Shown here in pieces: positions 655 through 59,095 of a stretch of DNA of 64,000 bases (position 1 is its first letter; every line of letters begins with the position of its first letter). The notes below the pieces were generated by a model that had not been told where the DNA came from, searched no databases, and was given only the letters and a program-made list of their open reading frames with translations. The position numbers were made by a program, and so were the translations under genes. The DNA lies in NCBI RefSeq assembly GCF_004010195.1, contig NC_057718.1:78604935-78668934 (forward strand), given 5' to 3'. The DNA is from Chiloscyllium plagiosum (lineage: Eukaryota).

Positions 655-970
655 TAGATTAGCTAGGTGACCCGATTGTGATGCAAAGTGATGCCAACAG
701 CGTGGGTTCAATTCCTGCATCAGCTGTGGTTACCATGTAGACCTTGCCTTCTCAACCTTACACCTTTTGCCTGAGGAGAAAGTGAGGTCTGCAGATGCTG
801 GAGATCAAAGTTGAAACTTTATTGCTGGAACAGCACAGCAGGTCAGGCAGCATCCAGGGAACAGGAGATTCGACGTTTCGGGCACAGGCCCTTCTTCAGG
901 GCCTTTTGCCTGAGGCATGGTGAGCCTCAAGCTAAACTCCCCAGCAGTCATCTCTCTCCAAATAGAGAAC
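655..970 (+). mobile_element. tRNA-derived SINE interrupted by a Penelope-like terminus
   Basis: B-box-like gggttcaattcc at about 704-714. The body is split by the insert at 777-901. Confidence 0.55.
777..901 (-). mobile_element. Penelope-like terminal fragment (family A) with hammerhead core; 14 bp TSD
   Basis: ccttttgcctgagg duplicated at 763-776 and 902-915. Minus strand reads CTGAAGA-A-GGGC-ctgt-GCCC-GAAA-cgtc. Confidence 0.8.
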
Positions 971-999
971 TACTTAGAAAAAGAGAGCGTCCCGAAGAC

Positions 1000-2150
1000 A
1001 GTCAGCACCTCTTAATCAATAGTCTGCTCAAAGACACCCTGTCTGGGTTGCCAGGGCCCCCCAATTCCTGACTTCATTGCAGCCTTGGTCAAACATGGAT
1101 GAAAGAAATGAATTCCAGAGGCGCTGTGACAGTGATTGTCCTTGACATCAAGGCTGCATTTGACCTCGTGTGGCATCAAGGACCCCGAGAAAAGTTGGAG
1201 TTAATGAGAATCAGGAGAAAATCTCTCCACTGGTTGAAGTCATACCTGGCATAAAGAAAGATGGTTTTGGTTGTTGGAGGTCGGCATCTCAGCTGCAGGA
1301 TATCGCTGAAGAAATCCCTCAGGATTATGTCCTAGGGCACAACCACCTTCAGCCACTTCAAAATGACTTTCCCTCCACAATAACGTCAAAAGTGGGGATG
1401 TCTTCTGATGTAGAGCATGTTTCATGACTCAGATACTGAAGCAGTTTGGGCCCAAATGCAATAAGACCATTAATAATATCCAAGGTTGGGCTGAAAAGTG
1501 ATAAGTAACATTTGCACCACACAAATACCTGACAATAATCATCTAACAAACTAACCATTGTACCTAACATTCAATGGCATAACCATCACTTAATCTCCCA
1601 TTATCAAATTTGTGGCTACCTTTGCACAAAAATTGAGCTGAACAAGTTATATAAATACAATATCTGCATGTTAATGAGATGTTAGGAATCTTGCAACAAG
1701 TAACTCACCTGACTCACCAAAGCCTGTCCACATCAACAAGGCACAAGTCAAGAGCGTGATGGAATACTCTCCATTGCTTGGATGAGTGCAACTCCAAGAA
1801 CACTCATGAAACTTGACACCATCCAGGATAAAAATGTTTGCATGATTGGCGCTGCATCCACAAACATCCAATCCTCCCACCATTTGGCGCTCAATCGTAG
1901 CAGCAGTGTATACCAGAAATTCACCAAAGGTCATTAAGCCGAACATTTTAAACACATAACCACCTGCTTCTAGAGGAACAAGGGCAGCAGATACATGGGA
2001 ACAAGTTTTCCCATCCCACTCCACCCTAACAAGCAACTAACCATCCAAAATCAGAAATATGATGCTTTCAGGTACATGGGCTGCAGAATATCAATAAGGT
2101 AGGTCATTACCATCTTTTAAAGGGCAACAAATGCTGGCTTAAATGAATAA
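1000..2150 (+). mobile_element. Old CR1/L2-group LINE, RT and 3' part
   Basis: Degenerate LDIKAAFD.VWHQG RT motif at about 1140-1180. Homologous to 33480-35160. Confidence 0.7.
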
Positions 2151-2929: not shown

Positions 2930-4600
2930 TATTGTAAAAAATATCAGAACACTTGGGAACAATTAATAGGATTATACAAGGTCAGCATGGATTTGTGAAA
3001 GGGAAATCATGCCTAACTAATCTACTGGCATTTTTAGAATGTAATTAGTAAAGTAGATGAGAGGTAATTGGTGGAAATGATGTGTTTAGATTTCAAGAAG
3101 GCTTTTGATAGGATCCCACATAAGAGGATATGGTAGTGGTCAAAATTAAAGTGCATGGCATTGAAAGTAATGTACTGGCAGGGATTGAAAATTGGTTGAT
3201 AGTTCGGAAACAGAGATGGTTCCTTTTCCGGGTGGCAACTGGTGACTAATGGTTTACCCCTGGGATCAGTGCTTGGGCCCCAGATATTCAAGATGTGTTT
3301 AAATGACTTGGATGAGGGAACCAAATGCTATATTTCCAAGTTTGCTGACAGTACAAAACTAAGATGCGCAATCTCAACATTTGAGTTAGATGAAACAAAA
3401 ACACAAAAATCCTAGAGGAAATATGTTGCAAATTTTACAAGGATGTAAATCTTTTACAAAGATTTACAAGGATGTTGCCAGGGTTGGAGGATTTGAGCCA
3501 TAGGGAGAGGTTGATTAGGCTAGGGCTGTTTTCCCTGCAATGTCAGAGGCTGAGGGGTGACATTATAAAGGCATATAAAATTATGAGAGGCATGGATAGG
3601 ATAAATATTCAAAGTCTTTTCCACGGGGTGGGGGAGACCAGAAGTAGAGGTTTAGGGTGAGAGGGGAAAGATATAAAAGAGACCTAAGGGGCAACTGTTT
3701 CATGCAGAGGGTGGTATGTGTATAGAATGAGCTGCCAGAGGAAGTGGTGGAGCCTGGTACAATTGCAGCATTTAAAAGGCATCTGGTTGAGTGTATGAAT
3801 AGGAAGGGTTTAGAGGGATATGGACCAAGTGTTGGCAAATGGGACTGGATTAGGTTGGGATGCCTGGTCAGCATGGATGAGTTGGATTGAAGGGTCTGTT
3901 TTCATGCTGTATATCTCTATGACTCAATGACTCTAAGTGGGACTGTACGTTGTGAGGAGGATGTAAGAAGGCTCCAGCATGACCTAGACAACTTTATTGG
4001 GTGCGCGAACACATAGAAGATACAATATAACATGGGTAAATGTGTGAAAAATAGAAAGGCAGTGTATAAGGAGCAACACTTATATCTGCAGAATTGTTTT
4101 CCATGGTTTCAGTTACCTGCGATTTACAGCAGCCTGAACATAATAGAGAGAATGTTCTGTAGCTGGGGACCGGGGGACTGTTGGGAAGGTAAAATTTCCC
4201 ATTAACTGAATGGGCTCATTTCTATCCTGCGAATTTGGGCTTCTGCAGTAGGTCTTAGATGGGTAAGGGGGGGTGGGGAATAATGTAATTTACATGGTAA
4301 TTGGTAACTATGGCTGCACAAAGGAATCTGTGTGTTCTTGTGTACTAGTCAATGAAAGTCAATAGGCAAGTGCTGCAAGCAATTAGGAAGGTAGATGGTA
4401 TGTTGGCCTTCATTGCAAGAAGATTTGAATTCAGAAGTAGGGATGCCTTACTGCTGTCATATAGTCTTCGTAAGACTGCATCTGGAGTATCGTGTCCACT
4501 TTTGATCTCCCTTATTTAAGTGAAGATACACTTGTCATAGGGGAATGTGGATAGGTTCAGGGGATGGCAGGACTGTCATGAGGAGAGTTTAGTTTGAATG
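2930..4600 (+). mobile_element. CR1 LINE RT fragment with a younger CR1 3' end nested at about 3455-3935
   Basis: QHGFVKGKSCLTNL, DFKKAFD, P.GSVLGP and KFAD motifs. The nested copy ends in a ctctatgact-type microsatellite tail. Confidence 0.85.
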
Positions 4601-5214
4601 GGCCTACAGAAACAGAAACAAAAGTATTTTATAAAATATTGGCTACATTTCCCATCATGCTTCATGTCTACATTTGTCTGTACTGAGCTTTCAACATGCA
4701 TTTACATTTCAGTATTAATCAATTGTCTAACCACACTGTTTAATCAACATTCCAAACTGTTGTTTAGTTTTTTAATGTAAAAGTTTGTAATAGTTCATAT
4801 TAGTTCATGTGCTTTTAAAACCAGTTCAAAGACGACAAAGAACTGAAAGTTTTTCCATTAAATTTTAAATGAATATATAGTGAAGAAAGGCAGTTAGTCA
4901 CTGTTCAATTGCTTCTAATTACAAGGCCATGAATGGCACGTTCAGTACACAGTGGAGGGACCATTGTATCTGACTAACTACTCCTGTTCTGTCTGTGCAC
5001 AGGTGTCCATGGAGAGGGAACATGTGAGTCCATTGGCATATTAGAGGCCTTTAGGGCCGGGAAATTATGTTTTGATTTCAATTTTGTTACAATTTTCAAT
5101 TTCTGCTAACCTCTTGACCTTTTGTAACAGTACCCCATCAGGGACTATCTAAACCATTACTGCGAATTTTCTCTGATCCTGAATGCACATTTATAACGGT
5201 CAGGATTAGTGATG

Positions 5215-5602
5215 ATTCGGAGATGCCGGTGTTGGACTGGGGTGCACAAAGTTAAAAATCACACAACACCAGGTTATAGTCCAACAGGTTTAATTGGAAG
5301 CACTAGCTTTCGGAGCGCCGCTCCTTCATCAGGTGATTGTGGAGGGCTCGATCGTAACACAGAATTTATAGCAAAAATTTTACATTGCACTTTGCTCAAA
5401 AACCACATAGATTCATGTCGAACTCTGAGCTCAAAAACTGCATCAATTTATGTAAAACTCCGTTATCTCACTTTTTAGATTGGAATCAATCTAAACATCA
5501 GGTCATAGACAGAGAACACAGGGGGCTAACACCTTCAACATAAAAGCTAGTGTGCTTCCAATTAAACCTGTTGGACTATAACCTGGTGTTGTGTGATTTT
5601 TA
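5215..5602. mobile_element. Penelope-like (family B) insertion with inverted termini; 13 bp TSD
   Basis: aggattagtgatg at 5202-5214 and 5603-5615. The stretch about 5255-5300 is the reverse complement of about 5555-5600. Confidence 0.8.
5301..5335 (-). ncRNA. Minimal type I hammerhead ribozyme motif (family B), intact
   Basis: cac-CUGAUGA-a-GGAGC-ggc-GCUCC-GAAA-gcUA-gug. Helix I cac/gug, 5 bp helix II, palindromic AGCU in place of helix III. Confidence 0.75.
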
Positions 5603-6181
5603 AGGATTAGTGATGTAATTGTTGAATGAACAAATCCCAACATAGATCTTTTTTGAGATATTGACAAGTTAGATGTCATTTTTATGCTAGTCAGCAAAAG
5701 GTATTAAAGTCTATTTAAAAGCAACTCTGAAACTGCATAAATACAGGTCAATAAGAGGGAACAACATGCTCAAGATAAGAATCCATGATGACCATAGCGC
5801 ACTGCTGATGCAGAAAGTAAAATAAGCTGAGAAAGTTTCTCTGCTGGAAAAGTCAACATCCACAACCTTGCATATCTGGAATTCACTGAACAATTTATGG
5901 AAGATCATGTCTCGCAAAAATAGTTCTTGTCAGTGACTAGACAGCTCACTGCAAACTAAAAGGTGATTGATATTGGAGACAGCCAGAATATAAAGGAGAA
6001 AAGATTTCCTGCAAAATATGAAAACATAGAAGCTATAAGAAGGCTTTGTTTAATAGTTCAAGATATTTAAATTGTCATTAGTAGATATTTAATCTATCAA
6101 AGGAAAATTTTGGGATTTTTCTTTGGGTACAATAATTTTAGAGGTAATTTTGTCAAGTTTTGATTGACCATTCAAAATGGA

Positions 6182-6379
6182 GAAAGTGAGGACTACAGAT
6201 GCTGGAGATCAGAGCTGAAAATGTGTTGCTGGAAAAGCGCAGCAGGTCAGGCAGCATCCAGGGAACAGGAGAATCGACGTTTCGGGCATAAGCCCTTCTT
6301 CAGGCTTATGCCCGAAACGTCGATTCTCCTGTTCCCTGGATGCTGCCTGACCTGCTGCACTTTTCCAGCAACACATTTT
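6182..6379. mobile_element. Penelope-like family A fold-back insertion; 13 bp TSD
   Basis: cattcaaaatgga at 6169-6181 and 6380-6392. 78 bp inverted arms at 6217-6294 and 6303-6380. Confidence 0.85.
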
Positions 6380-6619
6380 CATTCAAAATGGACTCTGATT
6401 GTCAGCTAGCCCCAACCACTATTCATGAAAGACTAAACGTATTCACTGAACCTTGCTGGGTGAAATAAAAAACAGTCTTATTATTAGGGCCGTGCCTTTA
6501 TTCACCAATTCAGAAAAGCAAGGATTGAGAAAAAAAGAGAGCAAAATTTGTATATTTATATATGTTCCTATGATTATGAACAATAACTTAGTGAACAACC
6601 CTCCATTTTGTGTTGCGTT

Positions 6620-8015: not shown

Positions 8016-8154
8016 TTAAGTGACTATCATCTGATGAAGGAGCGACGCTCCGAAAGCGAGTGTGCTTCCAATTAAACCTGTTGGACTATAACCTGGTGTT
8101 GTGTGATTTTTAACTTTGTACACCCCAGTCCAACACCGGCATCTCCAAATCATG
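8016..8154 (+). mobile_element. Penelope-like family B terminus with mutated hammerhead, just downstream of the plg stop
   Basis: CTGATGA-a-GGAGC-gac-GCTCC-GAAA-gcGA at 8031-8059, with the cleavage triplet changed from CUA to CGA. Imperfect acaatttt.aaagt TSD. Confidence 0.75.
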
Positions 8155-8211
8155 ACAATTTTAAAAAGTCTTCTCAATGAAATGAAAACAATAATTGTGT
8201 CAGAGAAGGAA

Positions 8212-8217: not shown

Positions 8218-8293
8218 CGTTCACAGGTGGAATTTACAATCAGAATGCACTGGAAACACGCAATTTTGATTATTGCAGTCAGCTAAGTGTATC

Positions 8294-8458
8294 TTAACCA
8301 CCTCCTATAACTTTTTGAATCCAGTTAACAAAATGCGAAACTCGAACGTAAACTCCTGGCTTCATTTGTCTTGCACAACCAAGCCCCCAAGATGTTACTC
8401 CTTGGAGAACATATTGGCCCTTGGAGTTTGGACATACCAAAGGACCTCCACTGTCACC
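8294..8458 (-). CDS. plg: Plasminogen last coding exon (19-equivalent), catalytic Ser ([54 protein letters not shown])
   Basis: GDSGGP and [22 protein letters not shown] motifs. ctttcag acceptor, TAA stop at 8296-8294. Confidence 0.97.
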
Positions 8459-8956
8459 CTGAAAGAAAAGCACAATCAAGGGATCAATGACAACAATGGA
8501 GACGTCCTCGTTTAAATCTATTTGTAGCACTAATACAGATAAATGGCTGATAGGCTTTTGGCTTGACGAATAAAAGTCATCTCTGTTTACAAATTTTTAA
8601 AAAGTTGAGTGTTGGGCAGTTATCAATTGATTTTTTTATTTTTGCACTGTGGGCATTATTACTTAACCCCTGCTTGCCCAGGCAAGTGCTGCCTTTATGC
8701 ATGACAACTGAGTAAATTACAACAGTAAAGAACCATACTTGTTGATGTGATTACAACAATCCAACAATTCCAGAGTTTTAAAAGTTAAATTCAAATTTTA
8801 AAACTGCCACAGTAAGATTGAAACCCCTATTTACTGGACTGTTGGGGACTCTGTTTCTAGCTTGCTGTGATCCCACCTTCCTATTATTGCATATCATTCT
8901 GACATATGTTTGGGGTAAGTGCTCATTGAGTCCGGATATTAAAGTTTTTCACACAA

Positions 8957-11346
8957 GGGCTGGTGAGTTTTCTCACTATATCTTACCACACTTGCCTTAT
9001 TAACTAACTGTCCCACCCTCTCTAGCAACCCCTTGTTTGATTCTAGCCCTACCTTACCAAGCATTGTTCCTTGAAGAATTTGCCACTGCCAGGATATTGT
9101 GGAATTGACTGACATCTCTGGTGCATCTTTAAAAGGCTGTAGTGCACCTAAACAGGTACTGTCAGTCAAAGCTGGCTTGCAATGTTCTTGACATAAATCC
9201 TGAACATGGCAGGCAAAGGAAATTTCACATACAGCTTTTTGGGCAGGGACCTGGAGGTTCTGTTGGATGAAGTGGTGCAAAGGTGGGACATTCTCTTCCC
9301 CCAGGACCAGCCGAGGAGCCATGATAACAACCAATGTGAGCTCTGGTCCAACTTTGCCACTCAGCTCAACGCAGTCTCAGCAATCTGAAGGAATGCACAG
9401 CAAGGTGAGAAGAAATGTAGTTACTTTCTCCACTCCTCCAGGAGAAGTACCTTCATTTTCTCTCTGACACCTTACACTGAATCTACCTTTCTACTCTACC
9501 CACCTCCCACCAAGCTCTTGTTCAACCACTCTCACAATTGTCTGCAATATCTTGCTTCACCAAACCTCAGCACCACTAACCCTACTTCTCACTGAGCTGC
9601 CTACTCACTTGCTTGGTACACCTCCTCACCTGCCGTAACAGTTGTAGCACATGCTTCTTTTTCATTTCAGGAGGAAAACAGCCCACATTTGGGCAAGAAG
9701 AGCCAAGGTAGGTAGTGGGCTGCCTGATATTTGGCTTCTCACAATGCGTGTGGAAAGCATCCTGACTCTGACCATACTGAATGGCTAATGGATCATGTCC
9801 AAGCCCCTGAACTGGTATTCGAGTCTGCCATTGACTTACTGAGCCTGAATTCCCTGAGAGCAGGCTACCACCCTTGACTTGATCGAGGACTACTGATAAC
9901 CATGTCAGGGTTTTCTGTCTTTATGTCTGTGTTCAGCTGCAAGGCAATACAGCAGTACTATGAGCCTACAATCTCTGGCTGAAGGGGTGAAGTGTACAAA
10001 GGCAAGGTAATATGAGACAGGAATGCTGTAATCACACAGATGATCATTCAGTGAAATGATAGCAAGTGAATAGCCTGCCATGCAGATTTGTCCAGTCCAT
10101 GAGATGGGTGAGTGTCCCTGAGCACTCATATCCATTGCAATTATACTTACTGATGCAGCTTTGAAGTACAGGCATGTACTGTAAGTGCATCAGAGATGGT
10201 CAATATGGACATCCTTTGGAGCATGTGGTAAGCTGAAGTCACCAGAAATCCATTCTGACTTACCTGTTGAGAGTTCTCAATGTCTATCTTGTTCGGTGTG
10301 TTTGGTAAGATAGGACGCTGAATGTTAATAAGGTGAACTGTGGTCTTAATAAAGTGTTCAACAATATAATAATCCTCCGTACTTAGCAACTGCCTAATGA
10401 AACAAATCACTATACTGCTCAGCAGATACACACAAGATGGAGTGAGTTTATGAGATAGACGTCACCAGACTTCTCATATAATTCTACCACAAATGTTTTC
10501 ATAGCCCAAGATGTTCATGCCCCGTAAGATTCTGCCTTGTTTTATAAACTGGAGTGTGCTAAGTAGCAACCACGCTAGCCCCACTGATAAGATATCTCTC
10601 CTGATCACCTGTCAATCAGTTCATGAAGAGCTGGAAGGAAGTCAGAATGACTATTGCAGGCCTTGTCACTGTGAAGCTGCCAGCCAATAACAGGTTGGCA
10701 GCTTCTGGGCCGTAAAGGGTGTTTGAGGCCTATTCCTTGGGTTCTATTGAGGTGAGAAGGTAAGTTTTCTTGTGGGAAGAGAAGGCTCAGTGGGGTTGGC
10801 GGGTAGGGCAAAGGATAACTTTCAGTGGATATCCTCACACCCCCACTACTTGTGCCTCAATTTGACGCCAGATTCAGGCAATTAGAGACCCCTCCTAAAC
10901 TGGCAGTTGGATCACCATGGTTTTCTGGTCAGGGAAATGAACCACCTTTCTCATCCATCTGGGAGGCCGATGAGAGAGACATATCAATTTGATGCCTTAA
11001 ATGACCACTTAAGGGCCTCAATGCCGGCGAGTCAAAGTCCTAGTTAGCTTTCTTATTCCAGCAGGTGGAAGTGAGGACTGCAGATGTTGGAGATTAGAGT
11101 CGAGAGTGTGGTGCTGGAAAAGCACAGCAGGTCAGGCAGCATCTGAGGAGCAAAAGCCCGAAATGTCGACTCTCCTGCTTCTCGGATGCTACCTGACCTG
11201 CTGTGCTTTTTCAGCACTACATTCTCATTTCTTATTCCAGCACTCAATTGCTGAGGGGCAAGAAGTAAATCAGGTCTAAATGGTCCCATTTATTCTCCTT
11301 TTTGACATCTCTCTTGCTACTTCTGAGGTAAGGGAAAATCATTGCC
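8957..11346 (+). mobile_element. Degenerate PIF/Harbinger-type element carrying a Myb/SANT-like gene remnant (9206-9440, second exon near 9671-9740)
   Basis: F..RDLEVLLDEVVQRWDILFP...W..FA..LNAVS...RNAQQ..KK resembles the Myb/SANT-like domain of Harbinger ORF2. Imperfect gggc...ttttc termini; ends uncertain. Confidence 0.55.
11064..11227. mobile_element. Penelope-like family A fold-back insertion; 15 bp TSD
   Basis: tttcttattccagca at 11049-11063 and 11228-11242. Inverted halves present; hammerhead partly deleted. Confidence 0.8.
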
Positions 11347-11819: not shown

Positions 11820-14800
11820 GACTATAAGACATAGGAGCAGAAGTTAGGCCATTCAGCCCATCAAATCTTCTCCACCATTCAATTGTGGCTGATAAGTTTC
11901 TCATCGCCATTCTCCCGCCATATCCCCGTAACCCTTCATCCCCTTGACAATCAAGAACCTATCTATTTCAGTCTTAAATATACTCAATGACCTGGCCTCC
12001 ACAGCCTTCTGTGGCAGTGAATTCCATAGATTAACCACTCTCTGACTGAAGAAGTTTCTCCTTATTGCTATTCCATTCGTCCTTTTACTCTAACATTGTG
12101 CCCTTCGGTCCTCGTCTCTATTACAAATGGAAACATTTTCCCAACATCCACTCTGTCCAGACATTCAATATTCTGTAAGTTTCAATTAGATCTCTCCTCA
12201 ACCTTCTGGATTCCATTGAATATAAACCCAGAATCATCAAAAATTGCTCATGTGTTAAGTTTTCATTCCTGGGACCATTCTTGTGAACCTCCTCTGAACA
12301 CGCTCCAGGGCTAATACATCCTTCCTGAGATATGGGGCCCAAAACTGTGCACTACACTGCAAATGTGGTCTGACCAGAGCCTCAGAAGTACATCCCTGCT
12401 TTTATATTCAAGTCCTCTCAAAATAAATGCCATCATTGCATTTGCCTTCCCAACTACTGACTCAACCTTTAAGTTTACTTTGAAAAAATCCTGGACGAGA
12501 ACTCCCAAGTCTCTTCAGATGTTTGAATTTTCTCCCTGTTTAGAAAATAGTCCACGCCTCTATCCTTCCTGCCAAAGTGCATGACCTCATACTCTCCCAC
12601 ATTGTACTCCATGTGATACCTCTTTGCCCACTCTCCGAACCTGTCCAAATCCTTCTGCAGCCTCCCGCCTCCTCAATGCTATCTGTCCCTCTACCTATCT
12701 TTGTATCATCTGCAAACATCACCAGGATGCCCTCCATTCCTTCATCTAGATTGTTAATGCATAAAGTCAAAAATTGTGGTCCCAACACTGACCCTTGCGG
12801 AACACCACTTGTCACCAGCTGCCATTCTGAGATGGACCCTTTTATCCCCACCCTCTGCTTTCTTCCAGACAGCCAAGCTTCTATCCATGCTAGCACCTTG
12901 CCTCTAACACCATGGGCCCTTATCTTATTCAGTAGCCTACTGTGTGGCATCTTGTCAAAGACCTTCTTGAAATCCGGATAGATAGAGTCATAGAGTCATA
13001 GAGATGTACAGCATGGAAACAGACCCTTCGGTCCAACCTGTCCATGCCGACCAGATATCCCAACCCAATCTAGTCCTACTTGCCAGCACCCGACCCATAT
13101 CGCTCCAAACCCTTCCTATTCATATACCCATCCAAATGCCTCTTAAATATTGCAATTGTATCAGCTTCCACCACTTCCTCTGGCAGCTCATTCCATACAC
13201 GTACCACCCTCTGTGTGAAAAAGTTGCCCCTTAGGTCTCTTTTATATCTTAACCTACTCCTTACCTTCTCAAAAAATTCTAGCAGATTTGTCAGGCATGG
13301 CCTCCCCTTGATGAAACCCATACGCTTTCAAGTATTCAGGAATCTCATCCTTCACAATGAACTCCAAAATCTTACCCACAACTGAGTTTAGCCTAATTGG
13401 TCTGTAATTTTCCATCTTTTGCCTTACTCCCTTTTTAAACAGGAGTGTCACATTAGCGATTTTCCAGTCCTCTGGGACCCTCTCTGATTCTAGTGGTTCC
13501 TGAAAGATTACCACTAACGCCTCCACTATCTCTTCAGCCATATCCCTTTGAACTCTGGGGTGTAGTCCATCTGGTCCAGGCGATTTATCCAACTTCAGGC
13601 CATTCAGTGTTTCTAGCGCCTTTTCCTTGGTGATAGCCACTATACTCAGCTCTGCCCCCTCACTCACTTAAACTTTTGGGATACTATTCATGTCTTCCAC
13701 TGTGAAGACTGATGTAAAGTAATTGTTCAGTTCCTCAGCCATTTCTTTGCTCCCTACTACTTTCTTTCCAGCATCATTTTCCAGTGGTCCATTGCCCATT
13801 TTTGCCTCTTTTTTGCCCTTTATATATCAGAAAAAACTCTTACAGTCTTCCTTTATATTACTGGCTAGCTTACCCTCATATTCAGTCTTCTCCCTTCTTT
13901 TATTTTTGTACTCTGGTGGTCTTTGTAAGCTTCCCAATCCTCTGGTGTCCCATTGCCCTCTGCCATATTATGTGCTTTCTCTTTTGCTTTTACACTATCC
14001 CTGACTTCCCTAGTCAGCCAGGGCTGCCTCATCCCCCCGTACCAGGCTTCTTTTTCCTCAGGATGAGTCTCTGCTGTGTCTCCTGAATTACTCCCAGAAA
14101 CTCATGTCATTTGCTGTTCCACTGTCTTTCCTGCTAGGCTCCTCTCCCAGTCAGTTCCACCCAGCTCTACCCCCATGCATCTGTAGTTGTCTTTATTCAG
14201 ATATAATACTGTTACCTCTGATTCTATCTTCCCCCTCTCAAATTGCGGAGTAAATTTAATCATGTGATGATCACTGCCTCCTAAGGGTCCCTTCACCTTA
14301 AGCTCCTTTATCAAGTCTGCCCCATTACACAACACTAAATCCAGTGTTGCCTGTTCCCTACGGGCTCCACCACAAGCTGCTCCAAAAAGTCATCTGGTAG
14401 ACATTGCACAATTTCCTTTTCTTGTCATCCATCACCAGCCGATTTTCCCAGTCCACCTGCATATTGAAATCCCCCATGATCACTGTGACTTTGCTTTTCC
14501 TACACATCTTTTCTATCTCCTGGTGTATCTTGCACCCCAGCTCCTAACTACTGTTTGAAGGCCTGGACAGAACTCCAACTATGGGTTTTTTTTCACCTTT
14601 GCAGTTCCTCAATTTTACCGACACAGATTCTACACCATCTGACCCTGTAGATGATTTAATTGAATTAATTTCATTCCTTACTAATAAGGCAAACCCACCC
14701 CCTCTGCCCACCTGCCTATCTTTTGGATAGGATGTATATCCTTGAATATTCAGCTCCTAATCTTGATCCCCCCTTGCAGCCCTGTCTCTGTCTTGCCCAG

Positions 14801-17731: not shown

Positions 17732-18117
17732 TTTTTGTTTTAATACTCTCCTTCACTGCCTTTTTTAACCAGATTAAAAATTACACAACACCAGGTTATT
17801 GTCCTGGTGCTGTGTGACTTTTAACTTTTTTCCACCCCAGTCCAACACCGGTTCCTCCACATCTTTGTTAACCAGGAGTGGTTCATCTTTCCCATCAAAT
17901 TCCTTTTTGATCATCATAGTTTTTTTTTTGTTTTAATACTCTCCTTCACTGCCTTTTTTAACCAGATCAAAAATTACACAACACCAGGTTATTGTCCTGG
18001 TGCTGTGTGACTTTTAACTTTTTTCCACCCCAATCCAACACCGGTTCCTCCACATCTTTGTTAACCAGGAGTGGTTCATCTTTCCCATCAAATTCCTTTT
18101 TGATCATCATAGTTTTT
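17732..18117. repeat. Tandem duplication with a 193 bp period inside an old CR1 fragment
   Basis: gttttaatactctcc at 17737 and 17930. The two copies are nearly identical. Confidence 0.9.
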
Positions 18118-20697: not shown

Positions 20698-20858
20698 TCG
20701 AGAGTGTGCTGCTGGGAAAGCACAGTGGAAGGGCATGACGAAGGCCATTTGCCCGAAACATAGATACTCCTGCTCCTCGGATGCTGCCTGACCTGCTGTG
20801 CTTTCCCAGCAACACACTCTCAACTCTGATCTTCATCATCTGGTGTCCTCACTTCCTC
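20698..20858. mobile_element. Penelope-like family A fold-back insertion into an older LINE 3' end; 14 bp TSD
   Basis: cacaatgttattag at 20684-20697 and 20859-20872. Confidence 0.8.
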
Positions 20859-21250
20859 CACAATGTTATTAGGAAGGGAATTCCAGGATTACGACTCAGC
20901 AACAGTGGAGCAATGGTAATATATTTCCAAGTCAAGATGGTGAGTGGCTTGCAGGGGAACTTGCAGGTGTTGGTGCTTATTCCCTCCACTGGTGTAAAAT
21001 TCAAATCTAGATTTCTTGATGTTCCATTTTGCTCATGTTGAGTGGTTGAGAGGGTCAATTCAGGGCAAATTAAGATGGCTTCAATTCCATGTACCATACT
21101 TTAGAAGCAAGGGTGTTAATCTTACAAGATTGCAAAGACTCTTAATGCATTGAGGGGACATTCTTCAAAACAACTGCATGAACACAAATGCAAGAGGAAT
21201 TGACTCATTACAAGTAAAGGCAAATATAAAAAAGAATTGAAAATGAATAC

Positions 21251-25317: not shown

Positions 25318-25485
<168 letters not shown>

Positions 25486-36790: not shown

Positions 36791-36834
36791 TAAGAAGTGT
36801 AACATGTTTCAGTATAATGAAACCTGCATTAACC

Positions 36835-40585: not shown

Positions 40586-40716
40586 TTCCTGAAGAAGGGC
40601 TTATGCCCGAAACGTCGATTCTCCTGCTCCTCGGATGCTGCCTGTCCTGCTGTGTTTTTCCAGCACTACATTTTTCAACTCTGATCTCCAGCATCTGGAG
40701 TTCCTCACTTTCTCCT
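40586..40716 (+). mobile_element. Penelope-like family A terminus with intact hammerhead core (antisense to plg)
   Basis: CTGAAGA-a-GGGC-ttat-GCCC-GAAA-cgTC at 40589-40616. Confidence 0.8.
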
Positions 40717-42887: not shown

Positions 42888-43080
42888 CTGTAAATCAAAA
42901 GTTAAAAGAAAAATAGTCACATGGTGCTAGATTTTTGCCAAATCTAATTCCATTCTTTTTCTTGCCCTGGTTAGCAACCTTTCAATTTTGTAATACAGCT
43001 TATCTCAAAAGTGTTTGAATGGGTGTCACCTGCTTTACCAAAGATATTTGGTTTTGAGGCATATTTGTCAAATCTAATAA

Positions 43081-43720
43081 GGAGAAAGTGAGGACTGCAG
43101 ATGCTGGAGATCAGAGTTCAAAAGTGTGGCACTGGAAAAGCACAGCTGGTCAGGCAGCATCCGTGGTACTGGAGAGTCGATGTTTTGAGCATAAGCTCTT
43201 CATCAGGAATGTATGTGTGTGTGTGTGTGTGGAGGTTGGAGTGAATAGGTAAGACAGTTCAAGAAGGCAGTGCTGAGTTGGAGGGTTGTATCTGGTACAA
43301 GGTGAGGGACGGGAGAAGAAGAAATTGACATTGATTCTGTGTGATTGGAGGGTCCCAGGCGGAAGATGAGGTGTTCTTCCTCCAATCGTTGGGTAGCTAA
43401 GATTTAGCATTGGAGGATGCCCAGGACCTGCATGTCCTTGGTGGAGTGTGAGGAGGAGTTGAAGTGATTGGCCACAGGCGGTGTGGTTGTTTACTGCGTG
43501 TGTCCCAGAGATGTTCTCTGAAATGTTCCACAAGTTGGCGTCCTGTCTCTACAATGTAGGAGGAGACCACATCAAAACCAACGGACGCAGAAGATGAGAT
43601 GTTTAGAGGCGCAGGAAAATCCATGCCAGATGTGGAAGGAGCTGAGATGTAAAACCTGCATCCATACCTCCCCTCTCACTTCCATCCAAGGCCCCAAAGG
43701 ATCCTTCGTTATGCTACAGA
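43081..43720 (-). mobile_element. Penelope-like family A 3' region with a short 5' inversion; includes (GT)n near 43210-43230
   Basis: YIVETGRQL.EHFREHL (GIY-YIG second motif) and EEEHLIFRLG. The hammerhead GAAA is mutated to AAAA. Confidence 0.8.
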
Positions 43721-44849: not shown

Positions 44850-45250
44850 TTTCTAACTCAGCAGGTCATGGGTTCAAATCTCAATTCAAGCATTTGTATG
44901 TGTTACTTGGGTGCACCCTCCACTGATGTACTGAGAAAGTTCTACACAGTCAGAGATAGAAATTTTTGGGATGGGAGATAAAACCGAGGCTGTTTTTCTC
45001 TTGCCGGCAGATGTAAAACATCCAATAGCAACATGTTGCAGAAAAAGAGAGGAGGCCTCCATATTAAGCTGACCAATATTTATCCCTTCACCAAAATTAT
45101 AATGCCATATAATGTTATTGTGGGACCTCTCTGCAAAAACTAGCTGGTCTCTTCACATTAAGGCAGTGACAACATTTCAAAAATACATTATCGACTCTAT
45201 GCACTTTTAAAGTGTCCTGAGTGAAAGTGGTTTTAAAAATGCAACTCCAT
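44850..45250 (+). mobile_element. Deu-domain SINE (SacSINE1/AmnSINE1-like); related copies near 46180-46560 and 59420-59640
   Basis: gggttcaaatc B-box, taaaaccgagg, gatgtaaaa.atcc, ccaatatttatccct and tgtgggacct motifs recalled from Deu-SINE consensus sequences. Confidence 0.6.
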
Positions 45251-45298
45251 TCTTTGGGACTGTGATCAGCTAGGTACAAAATTGGCCAATGTACATAC

Positions 45299-45455
45299 GC
45301 TTCAGGATAATTGAGTGATGTTTTGCCATGTCTGTGTGGTGTCATGGAATCCCATTCCTGGCATCTTCTTCCTGACACTGTCACGGATGTAGTCCCACGA
45401 TAGTCATAACCATTTTGAGTAAAGCAATCAGTAGGTCCACCTTCGTACGTCGGCA
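45299..45455 (-). CDS. plg: Plasminogen exon 10-equivalent, first half of kringle 4 ([51 protein letters not shown])
   Basis: C-x6-YRG...CQxW...TPH pattern. ttttttag acceptor, gtatgt donor, 157 nt. Confidence 0.96.
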
Positions 45456-46733
45456 CTAAAAAATAAACAACATAGAAGATTTTGTAGAATGTTTGACATA
45501 AAATTTCACAATGTTGAATAATTTACAAATACTTCACAAAGCGTAAGAATGCCTCTACTTCCTCATGAGGCTAAGGGAATTTAGCATGCCCACAAAGATG
45601 CTTACCAATTTGTATAGATGCACCACAGAAAGCATCCTGTCTGAATGCTTCACAGTGTGGAATGGCCCAAAACCCCAAGAAACAACAGGGAGTTGTGGAA
45701 CCCAAGTTAATTTGTATACACTGATTATACATTAAATGATAGCAATTATGTCATTTATTCACAATTAACTGATCAGTTATTATACTTTGTCCATTCTCCT
45801 AATCTTGCCCTGGGTAGTAAATATGCCCAATGTGTTTCAGTTGCAAAATTCAGCCTTTTTAAATTTGTTCAGCATTAATGTATTAACATTTTACTCCAGA
45901 TGAATTTAATTCCTATGTTGGATGTGTTCCTCCATTTGAAGTTTTATGAAAACACTGACATTTGCAGAGCTGAAGATGTGGGCTGAAAGACAGGAATTTC
46001 AGTGGGTCTTGCATCAATTGTTTTTAATCATAAATACCCTGGAGTGACAACAACAAAGCAATAAGTACAGAGTCTAGGAAGTGAGAAAACTACAAAGTAG
46101 ATATGACAACATCTGAAAACCTAGGCTGATATGAAGGCAGTTGAAACTCTGGACTAAACTGTCAGTCTTTATCCAGTAGTAGTGTGCTTGCCTCAATTTA
46201 CTTCAGATGGTTTGGGGTTTATATTTCAATAAATCCAGGCCAACAGTGCAGTGCAGTAATAGGGACTGCTGCACTGATGGAAGTGGCTCCCTTTAGCAGG
46301 AGTATTAAAACAAGACTCTATCTCCTTTCTTAGGTTGATGTAAAAGATACTGTGGTTCTATGGGAGAAAAAGCAAGGACGTTCTCCCTTGTGTCCTGATT
46401 AATGCTTAGGCTCTCATTGTGGCCAATGTCACCTGCAGGTGGTAAACTGCACATGCAACATTGAAGCAACACTTGGTGTCTTATCGGAAAAAAATGTGCT
46501 GTCAATATCATGCCAGAACAGTTTCAAGTACACACATATAAACATATAATTAAGGAGCAGATGCATGCCATTTGCCCCTTGAACCTTCTCTGCTTTTCAA
46601 TAAGAGAATGGCTGGTTTATTATAATGAAAACGGAAATAGCTGGAAAAACTCAGCAGGTCTGGCAGCATCTGTGGAGAGAAATCAGAGTTAATATTTTGG
46701 GTTCTGAAGAAGTGTCATTGAGCCCAAAACATT

Positions 46734-47409
46734 TGTTATGGACAGTCCAGACACCCTCAAAACATTTCAAGAAAGTAGCCCAGCCCCTAACTTTGCTCGT
46801 TGTCTGAAGCAGATATAAGGTGGGATATTCCAGGAGTGATGCAGCTGGCCCAACTACTCAGCTTTAAACAAAACAGAATTTATCTGCAATGTTACCAAAT
46901 GAAACACAAACAGAATACTAAATAACTTAACCTATCTGAAAACCCAACAGAATATCCTAACTTAATGATGTTGTTCCGAATTCCTACAACAATCCCCATA
47001 AAGGTACCCCAAAAAAGGCAAAATCAAATACAGGGTCTTACAGGAGAGAGAGCGAGAGAGATGGCAGAGAGATTCAGCATGAACAACTTCTTCCATGGAG
47101 TTGCCTCTTGGACCAGCAACTACACACTGATTGACTGCTTTCAGTGAACAGCCAGACTGCTAAAAAAAACAAACTAAACCAAACCAAAGAAAGGCTGAGC
47201 TGGAAGAACTGACCACTCCCCTTTCATTGTACAAGTATTTTTTATTAAAACCTGAAAGCCTTTTGCCTGAGGCAGTATATGTTTGTTGTAATCAAATGGG
47301 CCCTAAAACCCTTCAAACCTAGACTTTTTGGAATCATTGCTTTTACGACTTCTCTGGGAAAAAAAAGCCAAAAACAGCATGACCTTGTTAAAGGAGATGC
47401 ATTGTCACA
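46734..47409. mobile_element. Solo LTR (676 bp) inserted into a Penelope-like fold-back terminus
   Basis: TGT...ACA ends with a 4 bp TSD catt (46730-46733 and 47410-47413). Flanks 46630-46690 and 47410-47480 are inverted relatives. Confidence 0.75.
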
Positions 47410-47589
47410 CATTAACTCTGATCTTTCTCCACAAATGCTGCCAGATTTACTGAGTTTTTCCAACAATTGCTGTTTTTATACCTGATGAAGGTACAACAAT
47501 TAAACTTGTTGGACTATAACCTGGAGTTGTGTGATTTTTATCTTTGTCCACCCCAGTCCAACACTGGCTCCTCCACATCATAATCTAAT

Positions 47590-48762: not shown

Positions 48763-49127
48763 GACCTCACTTCTATCACCTTCTCTGGCAGAGTTCCAAG
48801 TCTCCAAAGCAAGATTAATTGACAAGAGAGGAGGAAGGGACAAGAACATCCAAGGAGACAAGCCACATTATCTCTCTAGGGGAAGATCAGGTTTCCTTAC
48901 ATCGGCCTAAGGGAAGAACAAAGGCAGTTGACCAGCAGCGACCATCATAAAAGGGCACAGGACCACTATGACGTGGTACTGCTCCATACTATACAGTAAC
49001 ACTCAGATGGGTAGAGTGGTCTCATCTATCGTGGGTTGTATATTTCTTTTCTTTGCCTAATTAGGTAGTGTTGAAACTTTATTGCTGGAACAGCACAGCA
49101 GGTCAGGCAGCATCCAAGGAACAGGAG

Positions 49128-49163
49128 ATTCGACGTTTCGGGCACAGGCCCTTCTTCAGGAAT
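49128..49163 (-). ncRNA. Intact minimal type I hammerhead motif (family A), sense to the plg pre-mRNA, in a TSD-flanked insertion at 49072-49181
   Basis: auuc-CUGAAGA-a-GGGC-cugu-GCCC-GAAA-cgUC-gaau. 4 bp helix I, 4 bp helix II, ACGU palindrome. TSD aattaggtagtgt at 49059-49071 and 49182-49194. Confidence 0.75.
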
Positions 49164-52040: not shown

Positions 52041-53375
52041 CTTCAAAAGGCATAAAACAATTATCTTAATATTGAGGGCATGTACAGTTATGTTAATGTG
52101 CATGTAAGATGGTAGGATAACATGGGTAAACGAGTTTCTAGCTTTCTGAAAAAGGACATGGAGCATGAGAAGGGAAAGGTGGCTGGCTGAAGTGGGAATG
52201 AGTGAGCAGTACTGAGGCATTCTGGGTTATAAATTCCAATATCAATTCCACAATGAGCCTCACCCACACCCCTGAGCACAGAAAAATAGATTACCCAATC
52301 AGATGCCTGACTGTGGCCAATCCCCTAAACTAATATGGGAGGCAGCTCTTGACATACTGTGCCAGGACACCTTAACAGATACGTGCCTCCATGGACTTCA
52401 GTGAAATACGTGCCCCTAAGACTTTGACACAAGGCTACTCGCTCTCTGCATGTCTTGTGCATTTGCCATGTAAGCTGCTGGCACATAGTGCAAGTGTAAG
52501 ACTGGTGCAGCACACTGGATACACCAAGACGTACACCTCCTTGACTAATGACTACTGAACTTAGAGCACTCTGTCAGCGTATTGGAAAGCTGTCATGATG
52601 GTCATGAGGAGTTGGCGAATGACAGATGCCCATGCCCACAGCTGAAGAGTGCACGTGGCTGGTGCCTATGGGTCATGTCCTGTGATGCTGTTTTGTTATA
52701 CACAGCATGGAAATCCATCAGAGCAAGTGGCAAGCTGAATCTGCCAGGTCCCTGCTCTTTGGTTTCAAATTTTCTTGACTATAACTTGTTTACTGTGTTT
52801 AGTAACATGTACAGCTGAGATGAGTTGGAACGTCAACAAAGTCTTTATCAAGCCACTTAATTGGGAACGTATTGAGTCATATAGAATGGAAACAGACCTT
52901 TGGTCCAACCAATCCATGCTGACCATAATCCCAAAATAAACGAGTCTCACCTGCCTGTGCTTAGCCTCCAAACATTTCCTCATTGTGTACTTATCGACAA
53001 ATCTTTTAAACATTGTAATTCATCCACTACTGCCTCAGGAGGTTCATTACACACATAAACCACTCTCTGTGGAAAAAATGTTGCCCCTCACGTCTTTTAA
53101 AATCTTTCTTCTCTCACCTTAAAAATATGCCGCCGTAGTCTTGAAATCCCCTAACCTAGAGAAAGGACACCTGCCATTCACCATATCTATACCCTCATGA
53201 TTTTATAAACCCCTATAAGGTTACCCCTCAACCTCCTAGAGGTGAGGGCAGAACTGCCCAAAAAAAAATCCAGCTTAAAAATAACACATGACAGACTTGC
53301 TGCTGCCTAGCAAGAAACTTGTCACATCACTTATCAAAACCTTAAAAGTTGGAGTGAGAGTCTTCTGATGTTGAG

Positions 53376-53718
53376 CTGAAAATGTGTTGCTGGAAAAGCG
53401 CAGCCTGTCAGGCAGCATCCAAGGAGCAGGAGAATCGACATTTCGGGCATGAACCCTTCTTCAGGAATGAGGAAGGTGTGCCAAGCAGGCTAAGATAAAA
53501 GGTAGGGAGGAGGGACTTGGGGGAGGGGCATTGGAAATGCGATAGGTAAGAGCTTCTGGTCAGAGGAGATGACCTGGGGTGTGCAGTGAGAGAGGGACTC
53601 ACTGAAATCCTTGTAGAGGGAGGAAGAGAGCTTCTTCAAGGAAGGCATCCTTGTAAGAGGATTCGCAGTAGGTTAAAATCTTCTAGGAGAAAGTGAGGAC
53701 TCCAGATGTTGGAGATCC
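53376..53718 (-). mobile_element. Internally deleted, circularly permuted Penelope-like family A unit; 15 bp TSD
   Basis: tcttctgatgttgag at 53361-53375 and 53719-53733. Hammerhead at 53433-53468. ORF start MPSLKKLSSSLYKDFSESLSHCTPQ from 53648. Confidence 0.8.
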
Positions 53719-55149: not shown

Positions 55150-56340
55150 AAATGTGCAAGAAATGTTAATGCCTGAAATCGAATAGAAATGTTTGATTTC
55201 TGCTTTAAGGGTACTGCAAGAATACTTGTTTGGAAAGTAAAGGTTCCCCATAAGTTTCGAAATGAGATAGAACAGTAATAGTGTAGTGCCCCAGTTAGAA
55301 GAGAAGTTAGAAATAATTTTTAAGAAGTTATTTTGAGAGCCTGAGATAATTTATCACAGCTTAATTTGATTGAATATGTCAGTTTTGTATTTATGTAGAT
55401 TATAGTGAAAGGAAAGTGCAGATGAGACCAGTATGTTTAGGATAAAGTTTGGCTTGCTGTAATTAAAAGTTTGAGAATGATAATCGGAATAGAAAGGAAT
55501 ATCTAGCTTGAATACAGTTTAAAAAAAAGAGAACTGCATGATCTTTTAAGTCCATTTTATTTGGTAGTAAAGCATTTATACTAAATGCTAGTAACAATTT
55601 TGCAAGAGAATGTGATTCAGTGAAGCAACCTGTAGATGGGCAATACCATAAAGTTAACCAGTGACCATCCACTCTTCAGGAGTGTGAAATGAAGAAATAG
55701 AAACTTGAAAACAAATTAAAATGTTTATTGCAGATACCACACTCAATATACGACCGCACTTAGTAGGCTAACACTTATAATATACGTCCTTAGACAAGTA
55801 CATGATTATATGGTAGCATGGAGTCCACAGTGGATGTATCATCTTAGGGAGGGGGACATGTACAGCAATTAAGAAATGAGCAGAAGCTGCTAGATTATAA
55901 TTATAGGCAGTGGCCATAAAGGTAAAAATGCTCCAGAAGGGAACAGATCTCATTCAAGTAGATAACCATGAACAGATGGGGTAGGTAAGAGGCAGTACAG
56001 GACATCAGCATTGTCAATTGTGCTAGAGGAGCTGAATATGGTAGATTTACACAGATATACTGAAGAGGAGGAAGAATTGCTTTGAGAAGAACAATGTGTA
56101 CTAAAAGGCACCAGCGGTGTCTAGCAGAAAGAGAAAAGGGTGATATCACCACACTCATTCAGCATAACTTCATGAAAATATACCATGGAAATTCACACCA
56201 GGGGAGGGAAGCCATGTTGGTAAGTTGTTAAGGATAAGCAGATGCTGTGGTGACAAGGAATGGGAAGAGACATAATAAAACATTGTTAGAGCTGTTGCTA
56301 TGTGTCCAGCCTAATCCAGGAAGACGAGTCAAAGTCCACA
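55150..56340 (+). mobile_element. Highly decayed endogenous-retrovirus-like pol (RNase H and integrase zinc finger)
   Basis: Remnants YVLRQVHDYMVAW, AVAIKVK..QKGTD and MKIYHGNSHQGREAM, followed by a degenerate C..C..NPG segment. Confidence 0.5.
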
Positions 56341-57209
56341 TCTTGTATCATAGATTCATAAAGCATGGAAACAGATCATTCCATTGAACTCATCTGCACT
56401 GACCAGATATCCCAATCTGACCTAGTCCCACTTGTCAGCATTTAAACCATAACCCTCAAAACTCTTCCTATTCATGTACTCATCCAGTTGCCTTTTCAAT
56501 ATTCCCTTTACCACATCCTGTGGCTTACATGTGCCATCCTCTGCATGAAAAAGTTACTCCTCAGGTCCTTTTTAATTGTTGCCCCCCTTTCCTTAAACCT
56601 ATGCCCTCTAGTTTTGGACTTCCCCCCTAGGAAAAAGATCTTAGTTATTCATCCGATCTGTGCCCCTCATGATAATATAAACTTTGATATGGCTACTTCT
56701 CAGCCTCTGATACTCCCGGGAACAAAAGCCCCTGCCTATTTAGCGTCCCTAGATAATTCAAATCCTCCAGTCCTGGCAACATCCTTGTGAATCTTTTCTG
56801 CACCCCTTTAAATTTAACCACATCCTTCCTAAAGAAGGGCAATCACTAAATGACATTAGAAAGCAATATCAATTCTGTCTGGTCCTTTGGGAAAAAATTC
56901 AATCATGTTTGTCCAATATGAGTTTCGCTACATAAAATCATACAGACTGGTAATCATATATTTTCAAAATGGCAGTTAATTTTATTTCAGATTAGTGTCT
57001 CCACAATATTCCCAATCATTGTCAGTTGACAGGCTGGTCTGTATTTGCATGGTGCTTCTTCTCTTTGGAGAGGATGTGAGGGAAATTAGCTTTGTGTTGA
57101 AACTGCCAACTACTTCTTAACTGTAAGTAGGGAAGGTGTGAGGATCAGAATACCTGATAAGAACAAAGAGCAAAGCAGGTGCCGATTGCAAGAGCAGATG
57201 CTTGTAGGC

Positions 57210-59095
57210 AGTTTCTCCTACAAGGATCCTTTGAGCCATGGATAGAGGTAAAGGGGGAGGTGTGGGTGCTGGTTTTACACCTCATCTGGTGGCGAGGGAT
57301 GATGCAGGGAGTGGAGGGTGGGTTGATGGGGGAGTATGGACATAACAGGGGAGTCACGGAGGGAATGGTCTCTGCTGAATGCTGATAGGGGTGAGGAGGG
57401 AAATATATTTCTGGTGGTGGGGTCTGACGGTAGGTAGTGGAAATTCCAGAGGATGGTGCATTGTATCCGGAGATTGGTGCACTGGAAGGTGAGAACCGGG
57501 GGACTCTATCCGTGTTGCAGTTGGAGGGGTGGAGTTCAAGGGCGGAGGTGCAGGAAGTGGAGGAGATGCACTGGAGGGCATCTTTGACCTTGTGGGAGGG
57601 GAAAGAAGTAGGAGGCCATCTGGGATGTTCAGGTACTGCTCCTGGGAGACAGAGGATTTGGGAGTATGAGGTCATGTTTTTACAATGACGAGGATGTGGG
57701 GGTTGGTGTAGTCCAGGTAGCTGTGGGAGCGGGTGGGTTTAAGGTAGATGTCCGTGTTGAGTCGGTTGCCTGAAATAGAGACGGAGAGGTCCAGGTAGAG
57801 GAGGGAGGTGTCCGAGATGGTCCAGGTGAATTTGAGATCAGGGTGGAAGGTGTTTGTGAATTCAATAAATTGTCCAACCTCCTTGTGGAATCATTGATGT
57901 AATGGAGGAAAAGGTTGGGAATGGTGCCAATGTAACTACGGAAGTTGAACTGTTCCACGTATCCAATAAAAACACAGGCATAGCTGGGACCCATGCGTGT
58001 GCGCATGGCTGCCACTTTGGTCTGAAAGAAGTGGCAGGTTTTGAAGAAGCAGTTGTTCAGAGTGAGGAGCAGTCCAGGCGATTGGATGAGCGTGTCAGTG
58101 GAGGGGTATTGGTTGGGTCGATCAGGGTGGAAGGTGTTTGTGAAGTCGATGAATTGTCCAACCTCCTTGTGGAGGCATGAGGTGGCGCCGATACAATCAT
58201 TGACGTAATGGAGGAAAAGGTTGGGAATGGTGCCAATGTAACTACGGAAGTTGAACTGTTCCACGTATCCAACAAAAACACAGGCATAGCTGGGACCCAT
58301 GCGTGTGCGCATGGCTGTCACTTTGGTCTGAAAGAAGTGGCAGGTTTTGAAGAAGAAGTTGTTCAGAGTGAGGAGCAGTCCAGGCGATTGGATGAGCGTG
58401 TCAGTGGAGGGGTATTGGTTGGGTCGGTGAGTGAGGAAGAAACAGAGGATCAGGAGGCCTTCGCCATGGTGGATGGACATGTACAGCGATTAGATGCCAT
58501 GGTGAAGATGAAGTGTTGGGTGCTGGGGAAATGAAATTCATGGAGGAGGTGGAGGGTATGGGCGGTATTCTGAATATATGTTTCAGAGAAAATCTCTGGG
58601 ACACATCACCAAACAATCCCACTGCCCTGTGACCGACTACTTCAACTCCCCCTCCCACACTGCCAAGGACATGCAAGTCCTGGGCCTCCTCCACTGCCAA
58701 ACTCGAGCCACCCGACGCCTGGAGGAAAAATGCCTCAGCTTCCACCTTCTAACCACATGGCATCAACGTTGATTTCACCAGTTTCCTCATCTCCCCTCCC
58801 CCCATCTCATCTCAGATCCAACCCTTCAACTCAGCGCCACCCTCTTGAGCAGTCCCACCTGTCCATCTTCCTTCCCATCTATCTGCTGCAACTTGTCACC
58901 ATCACCCCCCACCTTTATCTGCCTATGGCATTCCAAGCAATCTCTCCCCCAGCCCCACCCCCTCTCCTATTTATCTCTCAGCTCATCCACTCCTAAACAT
59001 TCCCGATGAAGGGCTTATGCCCGAACCATCGACTCTGCTGCTCCTGGGTTACTGCCTCTCCTGCTGTGCTTTTCCAAAGTCACACTTTCCATCTT
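57210..59095. mobile_element. Penelope-like family A element: RT on the minus strand (57210-58575), then an inverted plus-strand endonuclease end and terminus (58580-59095)
   Basis: LTLNNF.F...F.Q...AM.TRMGPSYAC.F.GYVE...FL.Y..DC (Penelope RT core). Decayed hammerhead at about 59004-59031. Confidence 0.85.
57837..58426. repeat. Tandem duplication (306 bp unit; left copy carries a 22 bp deletion) of the Penelope RT core
   Basis: atcagggtggaaggtgtttgtgaa at 57837 and 58121. ORFs 57902 and 58208 translate almost identically. Confidence 0.9.

Follow-up and report, generated by a model that had tools for sequence, protein, structure and literature searches.

Hammerhead motifs in the window

The window analyzed here, a 64,000-nucleotide stretch of the Chiloscyllium plagiosum genome (GCF_004010195.1, contig NC_057718.1, forward strand positions 78,604,935 to 78,668,934), includes dispersed copies of hammerhead motifs that occupy introns of a minus-strand plasminogen-like gene or lie downstream of it. 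They represent minimal type I hammerhead folds found in the 3' ends of Penelope-like elements, which consist of a pseudo-long terminal repeat (pseudo-LTR) plus a tail; their self-cutting in the shark elements is predicted. The motif class and arrangement, including the extra base after A9, the palindrome and the dimer model, have been published (PMC4209133; reviewed in PMC6765202). Outstanding here are the more than 100,000 intact copies in this genome and the likely location of the motif at the very start of the element RNA.

A copy of a hammerhead motif family was present at all 12 positions listed in the initial annotation, as found by a core scan, per-family BLAST against the window and a structural descriptor; on the minus strand, C3 is located at 899, 5332, 6303, 43206, 49159 and 53464. 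While the claim of about a dozen motifs stands for the copies, the intact pattern CUGAnGA-N-helix II-GAAA-NNUH is satisfied by only seven of them (899, 5332, 6303, 38129, 40589, 49159 and 53464). It is broken in the other five, mostly through CpG sites: U16.1 is changed to G at 8031, helix II and G12 are gone at 37198, G12 is changed to A at 43206, U4 is changed to C, with additional changes, at 59003, and G12 is gone at 46704. The constancy described for the core thus holds across families, but individual copies vary. The extra base after A9, which could be verified, is A in families A, B, D, E and H and U in family C, and the palindrome that replaces helix III is ACGU in A, C, D, E and H and AGCU in B. 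Eight matches to the descriptor occur in the window, as compared to 0.3 per shuffle in 30 dinucleotide shuffles (maximum 1); seven of the eight are family motifs and the remaining one, at 37243 on the minus strand, is not. An Rfam search of the window produced 11 weak matches, none of them to a hammerhead.

The core and helix II, together with the palindrome and a helix I of 2 bp or more, are retained only at 40589, 49159 and 5332. The first of these (ribozyme 40589-40616) belongs to a family A terminus with a full tail (40586-40716, plus strand). The second (ribozyme 49159-49132), also family A (49067-49163, minus strand), has a 4-bp helix I, no tail and a 13-bp target duplication, and is sense in an intron of the host gene; intact sense intron copies of this kind could have consequences if they are activated by a partner RNA or by the protein of the element. 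The third (ribozyme 5332-5304) is found with a tail on the minus arm of a family B head-to-head insertion (5209-5603) whose plus arm (5543-5603) has no core. Truncation removed the 5' strand of helix I at 899 and 6303. The family A terminus at 775-900 (minus strand; intact core 899-872) starts 1-2 nt before C3 and has a full tail and a 14-bp target duplication, and the family A head-to-head insertion at 6177-6381 has an intact core (6303-6276) and a tail on the minus arm, a plus arm that begins in helix II and is devoid of a tail, and a 12-13 bp target duplication. At 38129 and 53464 the palindrome was erased by CpG decay. The former is part of a family C, Poseidon-type copy (37640-38245, plus strand) that includes a GIY-YIG remnant, a TATA box and a ribozyme (38129-38162) with an intact core that also contains the start of an open reading frame (ORF). 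The latter is part of a unit-length, internally deleted family A copy (53374-53717, minus strand, 15-bp target duplication) with the order tail, leader and ORF start, deletion, 3' untranslated region (UTR) and ribozyme (53464-53437).

Among the broken copies, the family B terminus at 8026-8153 (plus strand), with the core broken at U16.1, runs antisense to the host gene in what is probably its 3' UTR. Family A is represented by a GIY-YIG end remnant followed by a 3' UTR and a decayed ribozyme at 37198-37225 (36831-37286, plus strand), by a GIY-YIG remnant with a ribozyme at 43206-43179 in which helix II is compensated (A-U for G-C) and G12 is lost (43080-43600, minus strand), and by a long head-to-head copy (57145-59097) that has a broken reverse transcriptase on the minus strand and a GIY-YIG end, 3' UTR and decayed ribozyme (59003-59030) on the plus strand. 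The motif at 46704-46733 (plus strand) is a decayed ribozyme in a family D head-to-head remnant (46628-46733). The initial annotation had overlooked family pieces at 5543-5603, 11060-11223, 17773-18044, 20696-20864, 47409-47581 and 53684-53717. The piece at 11060-11223 is a family A head-to-head insertion with a core in neither arm and a 15-bp target duplication, that at 20696-20864 (plus strand) is a family A terminus with a decayed core, a short inverted arm and a 14-bp target duplication, and that at 47409-47581 (plus strand) is a family D piece fused to a family B piece, without a complete ribozyme.

The Penelope-like host elements

In longer copies the terminus of each family lies after GIY-YIG coding sequence. 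Upstream of family A a reverse transcriptase, a Cys-rich linker and a GIY-YIG nuclease are encoded (loci L071 and L068; window 57145-59097); the reverse transcriptase matches Pfam RVT_1 with an E value of 1.7e-6, just under the curated cutoff, and GIY-YIG, which has no Pfam match, was identified by motif. Family B is preceded by linker and GIY-YIG in locus L104, where the reverse transcriptase was not reached, and family C by a GIY-YIG remnant, with no linker seen. Because the Cys-rich linker is present in A and B (L068, L074, L104) and was not seen in C, the sequences class A and B as Neptune-type and C as Poseidon-type by the linker criterion of PMC8557442. The coding context upstream of A, B and C bears out the Penelope-like origin and the minimum of three families proposed in the initial annotation. 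Random sampling revealed further subfamilies related to A, named D, E, F, G and H.

Two 3'-end sites about 35 nt apart are found in families A and B. In family A, 158 of 185 pieces end at +81 to +96 or +123 to +129, and in family B 63 of 71 end at +78 to +93 or +119 to +129. These sites match both internal priming sites described in PMC11167929. Target duplications of at least 10 bp flank 43 of 144 family A insertions against 2 in the control, and 30 of the 43 are 13-16 bp long. The terminus doubles as the start of the next unit, as seen in the window (53717-53374) and in locus L266, where the tail continues into the leader and ORF of the next unit. The optional tail, the inverted 5'-truncated arm and the partial tandem known from EN+ Penelope-like elements were all found, and many insertions are head-to-head.

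The shark elements share with Neptune EN+ elements (PMC8557442, PMC3846280) the Cys-rich linker between reverse transcriptase and GIY-YIG, 5' truncation, head-to-head arms, a 30-40 bp tail on one end and target duplications. They differ in their far higher copy number and in the length of the target duplications, 13-16 bp as compared to 8-10 bp in the rotifer cases. With the Poseidon element PAc of Anolis (PMC11167929) they share two internal priming sites defining the tail, a ribozyme at the start of the next unit and the use of mainly uncut RNA as template, which is likely in the shark. As in PAc, the family C ORF begins in the core, whereas that of family A starts about 165 nt after C3, past the tail. 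With the minimal hammerhead ribozymes of metazoan Penelope pseudo-LTRs (PMC4209133) the shark motifs share type I topology, the lack of a real helix III, a palindrome at 15.2-16.2, the extra base between 9 and 10.1, the G10.1-C11.1 pair, several covarying families per genome, and a predominance of single truncated copies with nearby opposite-strand pairs. The shark motifs differ in having a helix II of 4-6 bp, and the portions of PMC4209133 consulted do not mention cartilaginous fish.

Copy number in the genome

Exact patterns matched the 3.56-Gb genome 86,254 times for family A, 17,454 times for B and 1,582 times for C, a total of 105,290, with no match for any of the reversed controls. Patterns tolerant of CpG decay add 2,210 matches for family H and 1,852 for family D; by the latter count the possible fourth family reported at 46704 is real, albeit as a relative of A at the subfamily level. 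Sampling of 125 stretches at round coordinates (1,207,570 called bases) with the strict descriptor yielded 85 motifs versus 1 in the reversed control, and extrapolation from the sampled stretches suggests about 240,000 intact motifs genome-wide (Poisson range about 190,000-300,000). A total of 317 terminus pieces, 168 of them covering the core, were found in 815,074 bases. This amounts to one core-covering remnant per 4.9 kb, in agreement with the earlier estimate of one per roughly 5 kb and a very large population, and sampling suggests about 700,000 such remnants in the genome. The 13 core-covering pieces in the window are exactly the genome average.

The highest numbers of minimal motifs per genome given in PMC4209133 are about 9,000 in Xenopus and 4,000 in coelacanth, as compared to at least 105,290 exact matches in the shark, about 10 times more than the highest count of that founding paper. 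The shark number is high but has a parallel: canonical motifs in axolotl retrozymes reach up to 120,000 (PMC7229834), a comparable number, yet the shark genome is far smaller. A literature search on Penelope, hammerheads and retrozymes in sharks and chondrichthyans and on polyadenylation in Penelope pseudo-LTRs returned no description of the present shark population or of its poly(A) site; a preprint (bioRxiv 10.64898/2026.07.22.740005) includes one chondrichthyan genome with retrozymes, and its supplements may hold counts. The aspects worth following are the scale and, as described below, the U3-A8 subfamily, the reading of the start site and the poly(A) site of family B.

Covariation of the fold and decay of the copies

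The initial annotation had suggested a covariation analysis of helices I and II, and both covary between subfamilies. The counts were made for the A group and C, leaving out family B, the rows of which were misaligned; family B itself varies little in its helices. Pairing in 16 A-group rows extends to 95.4% of the cells, compared to no more than 46.5% in slid controls, and 6 of 10 pairs change on both sides, including 3 of the 4 pairs of helix I. Rows were chosen for an intact helix II and palindrome, which inflates the paired percentage there, and related rows inflate the covariation counts, but helix I was not required. In 21 family C rows 96.8% of the cells are paired, and one helix I pair occurs as C-G, U-A and G-C. 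The pair G10.1-C11.1 is present and helix II shows compensatory change. When positions 3 and 8 were left free in family H, the first 100 of the 2,210 copies included 93 with U3-A8, 7 with C3 and A8, and none with G8 (example loci L193, L195 and L184:4820-4860). U3-A8, a variant also reported for Schistosoma (PMC4209133), is a compensatory swap inside the catalytic core, and the natural subfamily carrying it provides a built-in rescue control for cleavage assays. Because helices I and II covary and one subfamily replaces C3-G8 by U3-A8, the fold was selected in the source elements, i.e., between subfamilies.

The inserted copies, on the other hand, decay neutrally. Among 115 family A copies the deviation from the majority is 7.7% at non-CpG core positions, 13-26% at CpG positions and 6.2% at downstream positions, which were themselves used to find the copies. 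The core is intact in 64 of the 115 and everything is intact in 26. The initial annotation had expected the core of a genuine ribozyme to be more conserved than its flanks. At the level of copies it is not, a result that shows neutral decay rather than absence of a ribozyme.

RNA reads and the family B poly(A) site

RNA was represented by a single raw-read poly(A) run of a related species, of which 2 in every 100 reads were read and whose reads were 88-99% alike. In family B, 377 and 458 reads carry poly(A) after +57 and +60, respectively, where the DNA has no A run. This polyadenylation point is 30 nt past the cut site, at which the reads show neither a drop nor an end. An ATTAAA or AATAAA hexamer is located 17-20 nt upstream of it in 84 of 104 family B copies, followed by a GU-rich tract, while no such hexamer was found in A, D, E or H. 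Family B termini carry a working poly(A) site and appear to supply such sites to transcripts. Since a few loci may be the source of most poly(A) reads and such a library would not retain a cut product of 30 nt, the reads do not argue that cleavage is absent. Loose read ends at 1580 were considered as possible products of cleavage and were found to be due to a 2-nt length variant. The signal itself, seen at L104:1586-1625 and in the window at 8069-8115, toggles between ATTAAA and AATAAA, and family B stubs may end host transcripts.

The passage of RNA reads through the cut site without a drop would be expected if the fold were kept for protein binding or for promoter function and no longer cut, a reading to which we give very little credence. 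It would also accommodate the shortness of helix I (2-4 pairs, the largest subfamily having a U-U mismatch), predicted minimum-energy dimers that differ from the active fold, and catalytic mutants that leave in vitro insertion unaffected (PMC11167929). It does not explain why the U3-A8 swap restores a pair with a known role in the catalytic core (PMC4209133, PMC11167929), why N17 is never G in the subfamily majorities, or why the palindrome is kept in two forms.

Where copies begin

The 5' ends of the copies pile up close to the core. Among arms that reach the core, those starting 12 nt or less upstream of C3 are 61 of 107 in family A, and 28 of 50 in B, 43 of 47 in D, 14 of 20 in H and 7 of 10 in E, the last four families having only 2-4 long references, so that some arms called short may belong to subfamilies lacking a reference. 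Family G was left out of these counts since it has no long reference and its pattern overlaps that of D. In long copies, TATA-like matches cluster at -35 to -38 in A, -38/-40 in B, and -35 to -37 in D, E and H, i.e., about 31 nt before the pile-up. The first helix I strand of A, D and E fits the initiator consensus. Promoters in pseudo-LTRs are known, TATA-less in Drosophila (PMC2377424) and with a putative TATA box and initiator in a rotifer (PMC3846280); the consulted portions of PMC11167929 describe neither a 5' pile-up nor a TATA box or poly(A) site. The AG in helix I of D, E, G and H was considered as a splice acceptor and set aside, as family A has no AG and target duplications abut the stubs.

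Short and long family A copies are intermixed, a long copy being the nearest neighbor of 24 of the 61 short ones, with 22.5 expected. The pile-up, the TATA spacing and this intermixing are the basis on which we infer that the ribozyme likely opens the element's transcript and that the short stubs are run-off by-products. The TATA-like box would start transcription at the first helix I strand, which would put the ribozyme at the beginning of the RNA. The reverse transcriptase of the element would prime at the tail, and priming on the tail copy near the RNA 5' end would run off after about 95-135 nt, generating the commonest stub, which consists of ribozyme and tail. Cleavage would occur rarely or late, by way of a palindromic dimer or with the help of the element's protein, and would either strip off the first 30-40 nt with the cap or set free a unit-length RNA. 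Same-strand neighbors suited to forming a dimer are rare, with 3 such pairs within 1 kb found for 92 motifs. As regards the spread as non-autonomous termini put forward in the initial annotation, the short A copies do not form a separate non-autonomous lineage, being intermixed with long ones. In our view the copies of the window are probably insertions with a truncated 5' end, decayed in most cases and likely made from uncut RNA, that arose in this run-off fashion as by-products of autonomous elements. The copies can be considered a fossil record of the template RNA, of where copying started and stopped and of its usual passage through the cut site.

Several observations weigh against this interpretation, besides the scarcity of long references already mentioned. 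The pile-up is a zone of 10-20 nt rather than a single base, with 0-10 nt retained in A and 0-13 in B, and by eye 10 of 25 family B arms were short. In family C, despite a TATA box at -47 to -50, there is no pile-up, with 1 of 30 arms starting within 12 nt and 3 of 30 at 13-25 nt. Folding of whole termini was not better than that of shuffles (z -1.5 to +0.4), long frames met assembly gaps and yielded no intact full-length element, and in the RNA run no 5' ends were seen and family A was covered on both strands with no start or end standing out. In addition, head-to-head pairs have 33 of the 61 short A arms as their inner ends, and the junction there could be dictated by near-palindromes.

This last point leads to a different, less likely explanation, in which near-palindromes around helix I and the core allow the annealing of two cDNAs, made from the two target strands, or make reverse transcriptase stall; the pile-up would mark these places and have no bearing on the transcript start. 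An inverted partner within 120 nt accompanies the same 33 of 61 short A arms and none of 35 long ones, inversion junctions use helix I or short palindromes, palindromes at inverted junctions were noted in PMC3846280, and both target strands are cut and extended according to PMC11167929. However, the other 28 short A arms have no inverted partner, several of them with clean target duplications, family C has a ribozyme and a similar near-palindrome yet no pile-up, and the TATA spacing fits the pile-up in A, B, D, E and H.

Nearly all copies run through the cut site. Pattern counts gave 503 copies beginning at the cut site and 431 at a control site 4 nt upstream; the two patterns pass random flanks at about 0.18 and 0.34, respectively, so that, if flanks are random, there is a 2-fold excess at the cut site. 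A single junction is common to 74 of the first 100 cut-site starts; 16 of these were fetched, and 14 are inversions joined through both helix I strands. The raw counts favor copying from uncut RNA, but they hide the excess, which together with the shared junction counts against it. Microhomology would explain the inversion junctions, but they may instead reflect cleavage, and cut-site starts are a few percent of family A at most. The shark copies agree with PMC11167929, in which the main substrate was uncut RNA and the element's protein was required for cleavage.

Non-LTR retrozymes (PMC7229834; bioRxiv 10.64898/2026.07.22.740005) are also non-coding repeats with type I hammerheads, and the short units could be retrozyme-like or short interspersed nuclear element (SINE)-like families, independent of the autonomous elements and with master copies of their own, spread via cleaved, circularized RNA. 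We regard this as improbable. Family D is nearly all short, as the counts above indicate, non-LTR retrozymes have been proposed to derive from pseudo-LTRs (bioRxiv 10.64898/2026.07.22.740005), and solo termini that keep the promoter could be copied in trans. Retrozymes, however, are described as tandem, canonical and circle-forming, whereas the shark motifs are dispersed and minimal: tandem units of that type were not found, as reflected in the few same-strand pairs, and the units span the cut site instead of being permuted at it. Moreover, short and long A copies have common subfamily alleles and the 3' ends match the tail sites of the autonomous elements.

If the run-off interpretation is extended, the shark Neptune pseudo-LTR could be laid out like a retroviral LTR, with a TATA box, a start site at the first base of the ribozyme, the poly(A) site of family B 30 nt past the cut site and a priming tail; the ribozyme would then be a switch for cap removal on the mRNA of the element itself, and the run-off stubs, hundreds of thousands in number, would record the transcript start. 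We offer this layout tentatively, as it is rather more doubtful than the run-off interpretation itself. Were it true, shark genomes would have the highest known density of hammerheads and would be the most suitable ones for finding out what purpose the Penelope ribozyme serves.

Other features of the window and related loci

A long hairpin is predicted 3' of the ribozyme at 40627-40700 and in its homologues (A, D and H), closing near the tail; it is not above shuffles, and may be a priming structure. Chimeric head-to-head insertions join two families, A with B in locus L332 (around 335, minus strand) and D with B in the window (47409-47581), which suggests template mixing within one insertion event. 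At 17732-18117 a 193-bp unit that contains head-to-head family B tail pieces is tandemly duplicated with 99% identity, and the reverse transcriptase of the long family A copy has a 306-bp internal duplication (57889-58439).

The plasminogen-like host gene (8297-60522, minus strand) was recognized in a scan of 77 of 167 candidate frames, and includes kringle exons at 60262-60522, 45118-45522 and 35414-35710 and a last protease exon at 8297-8596. The window also has many long interspersed nuclear element (LINE) fragments with reverse transcriptase remnants, at 12540-14100, 27393-29680, 3458-3935 and 56343-56710, which we take to be of the CR1/L2 type.

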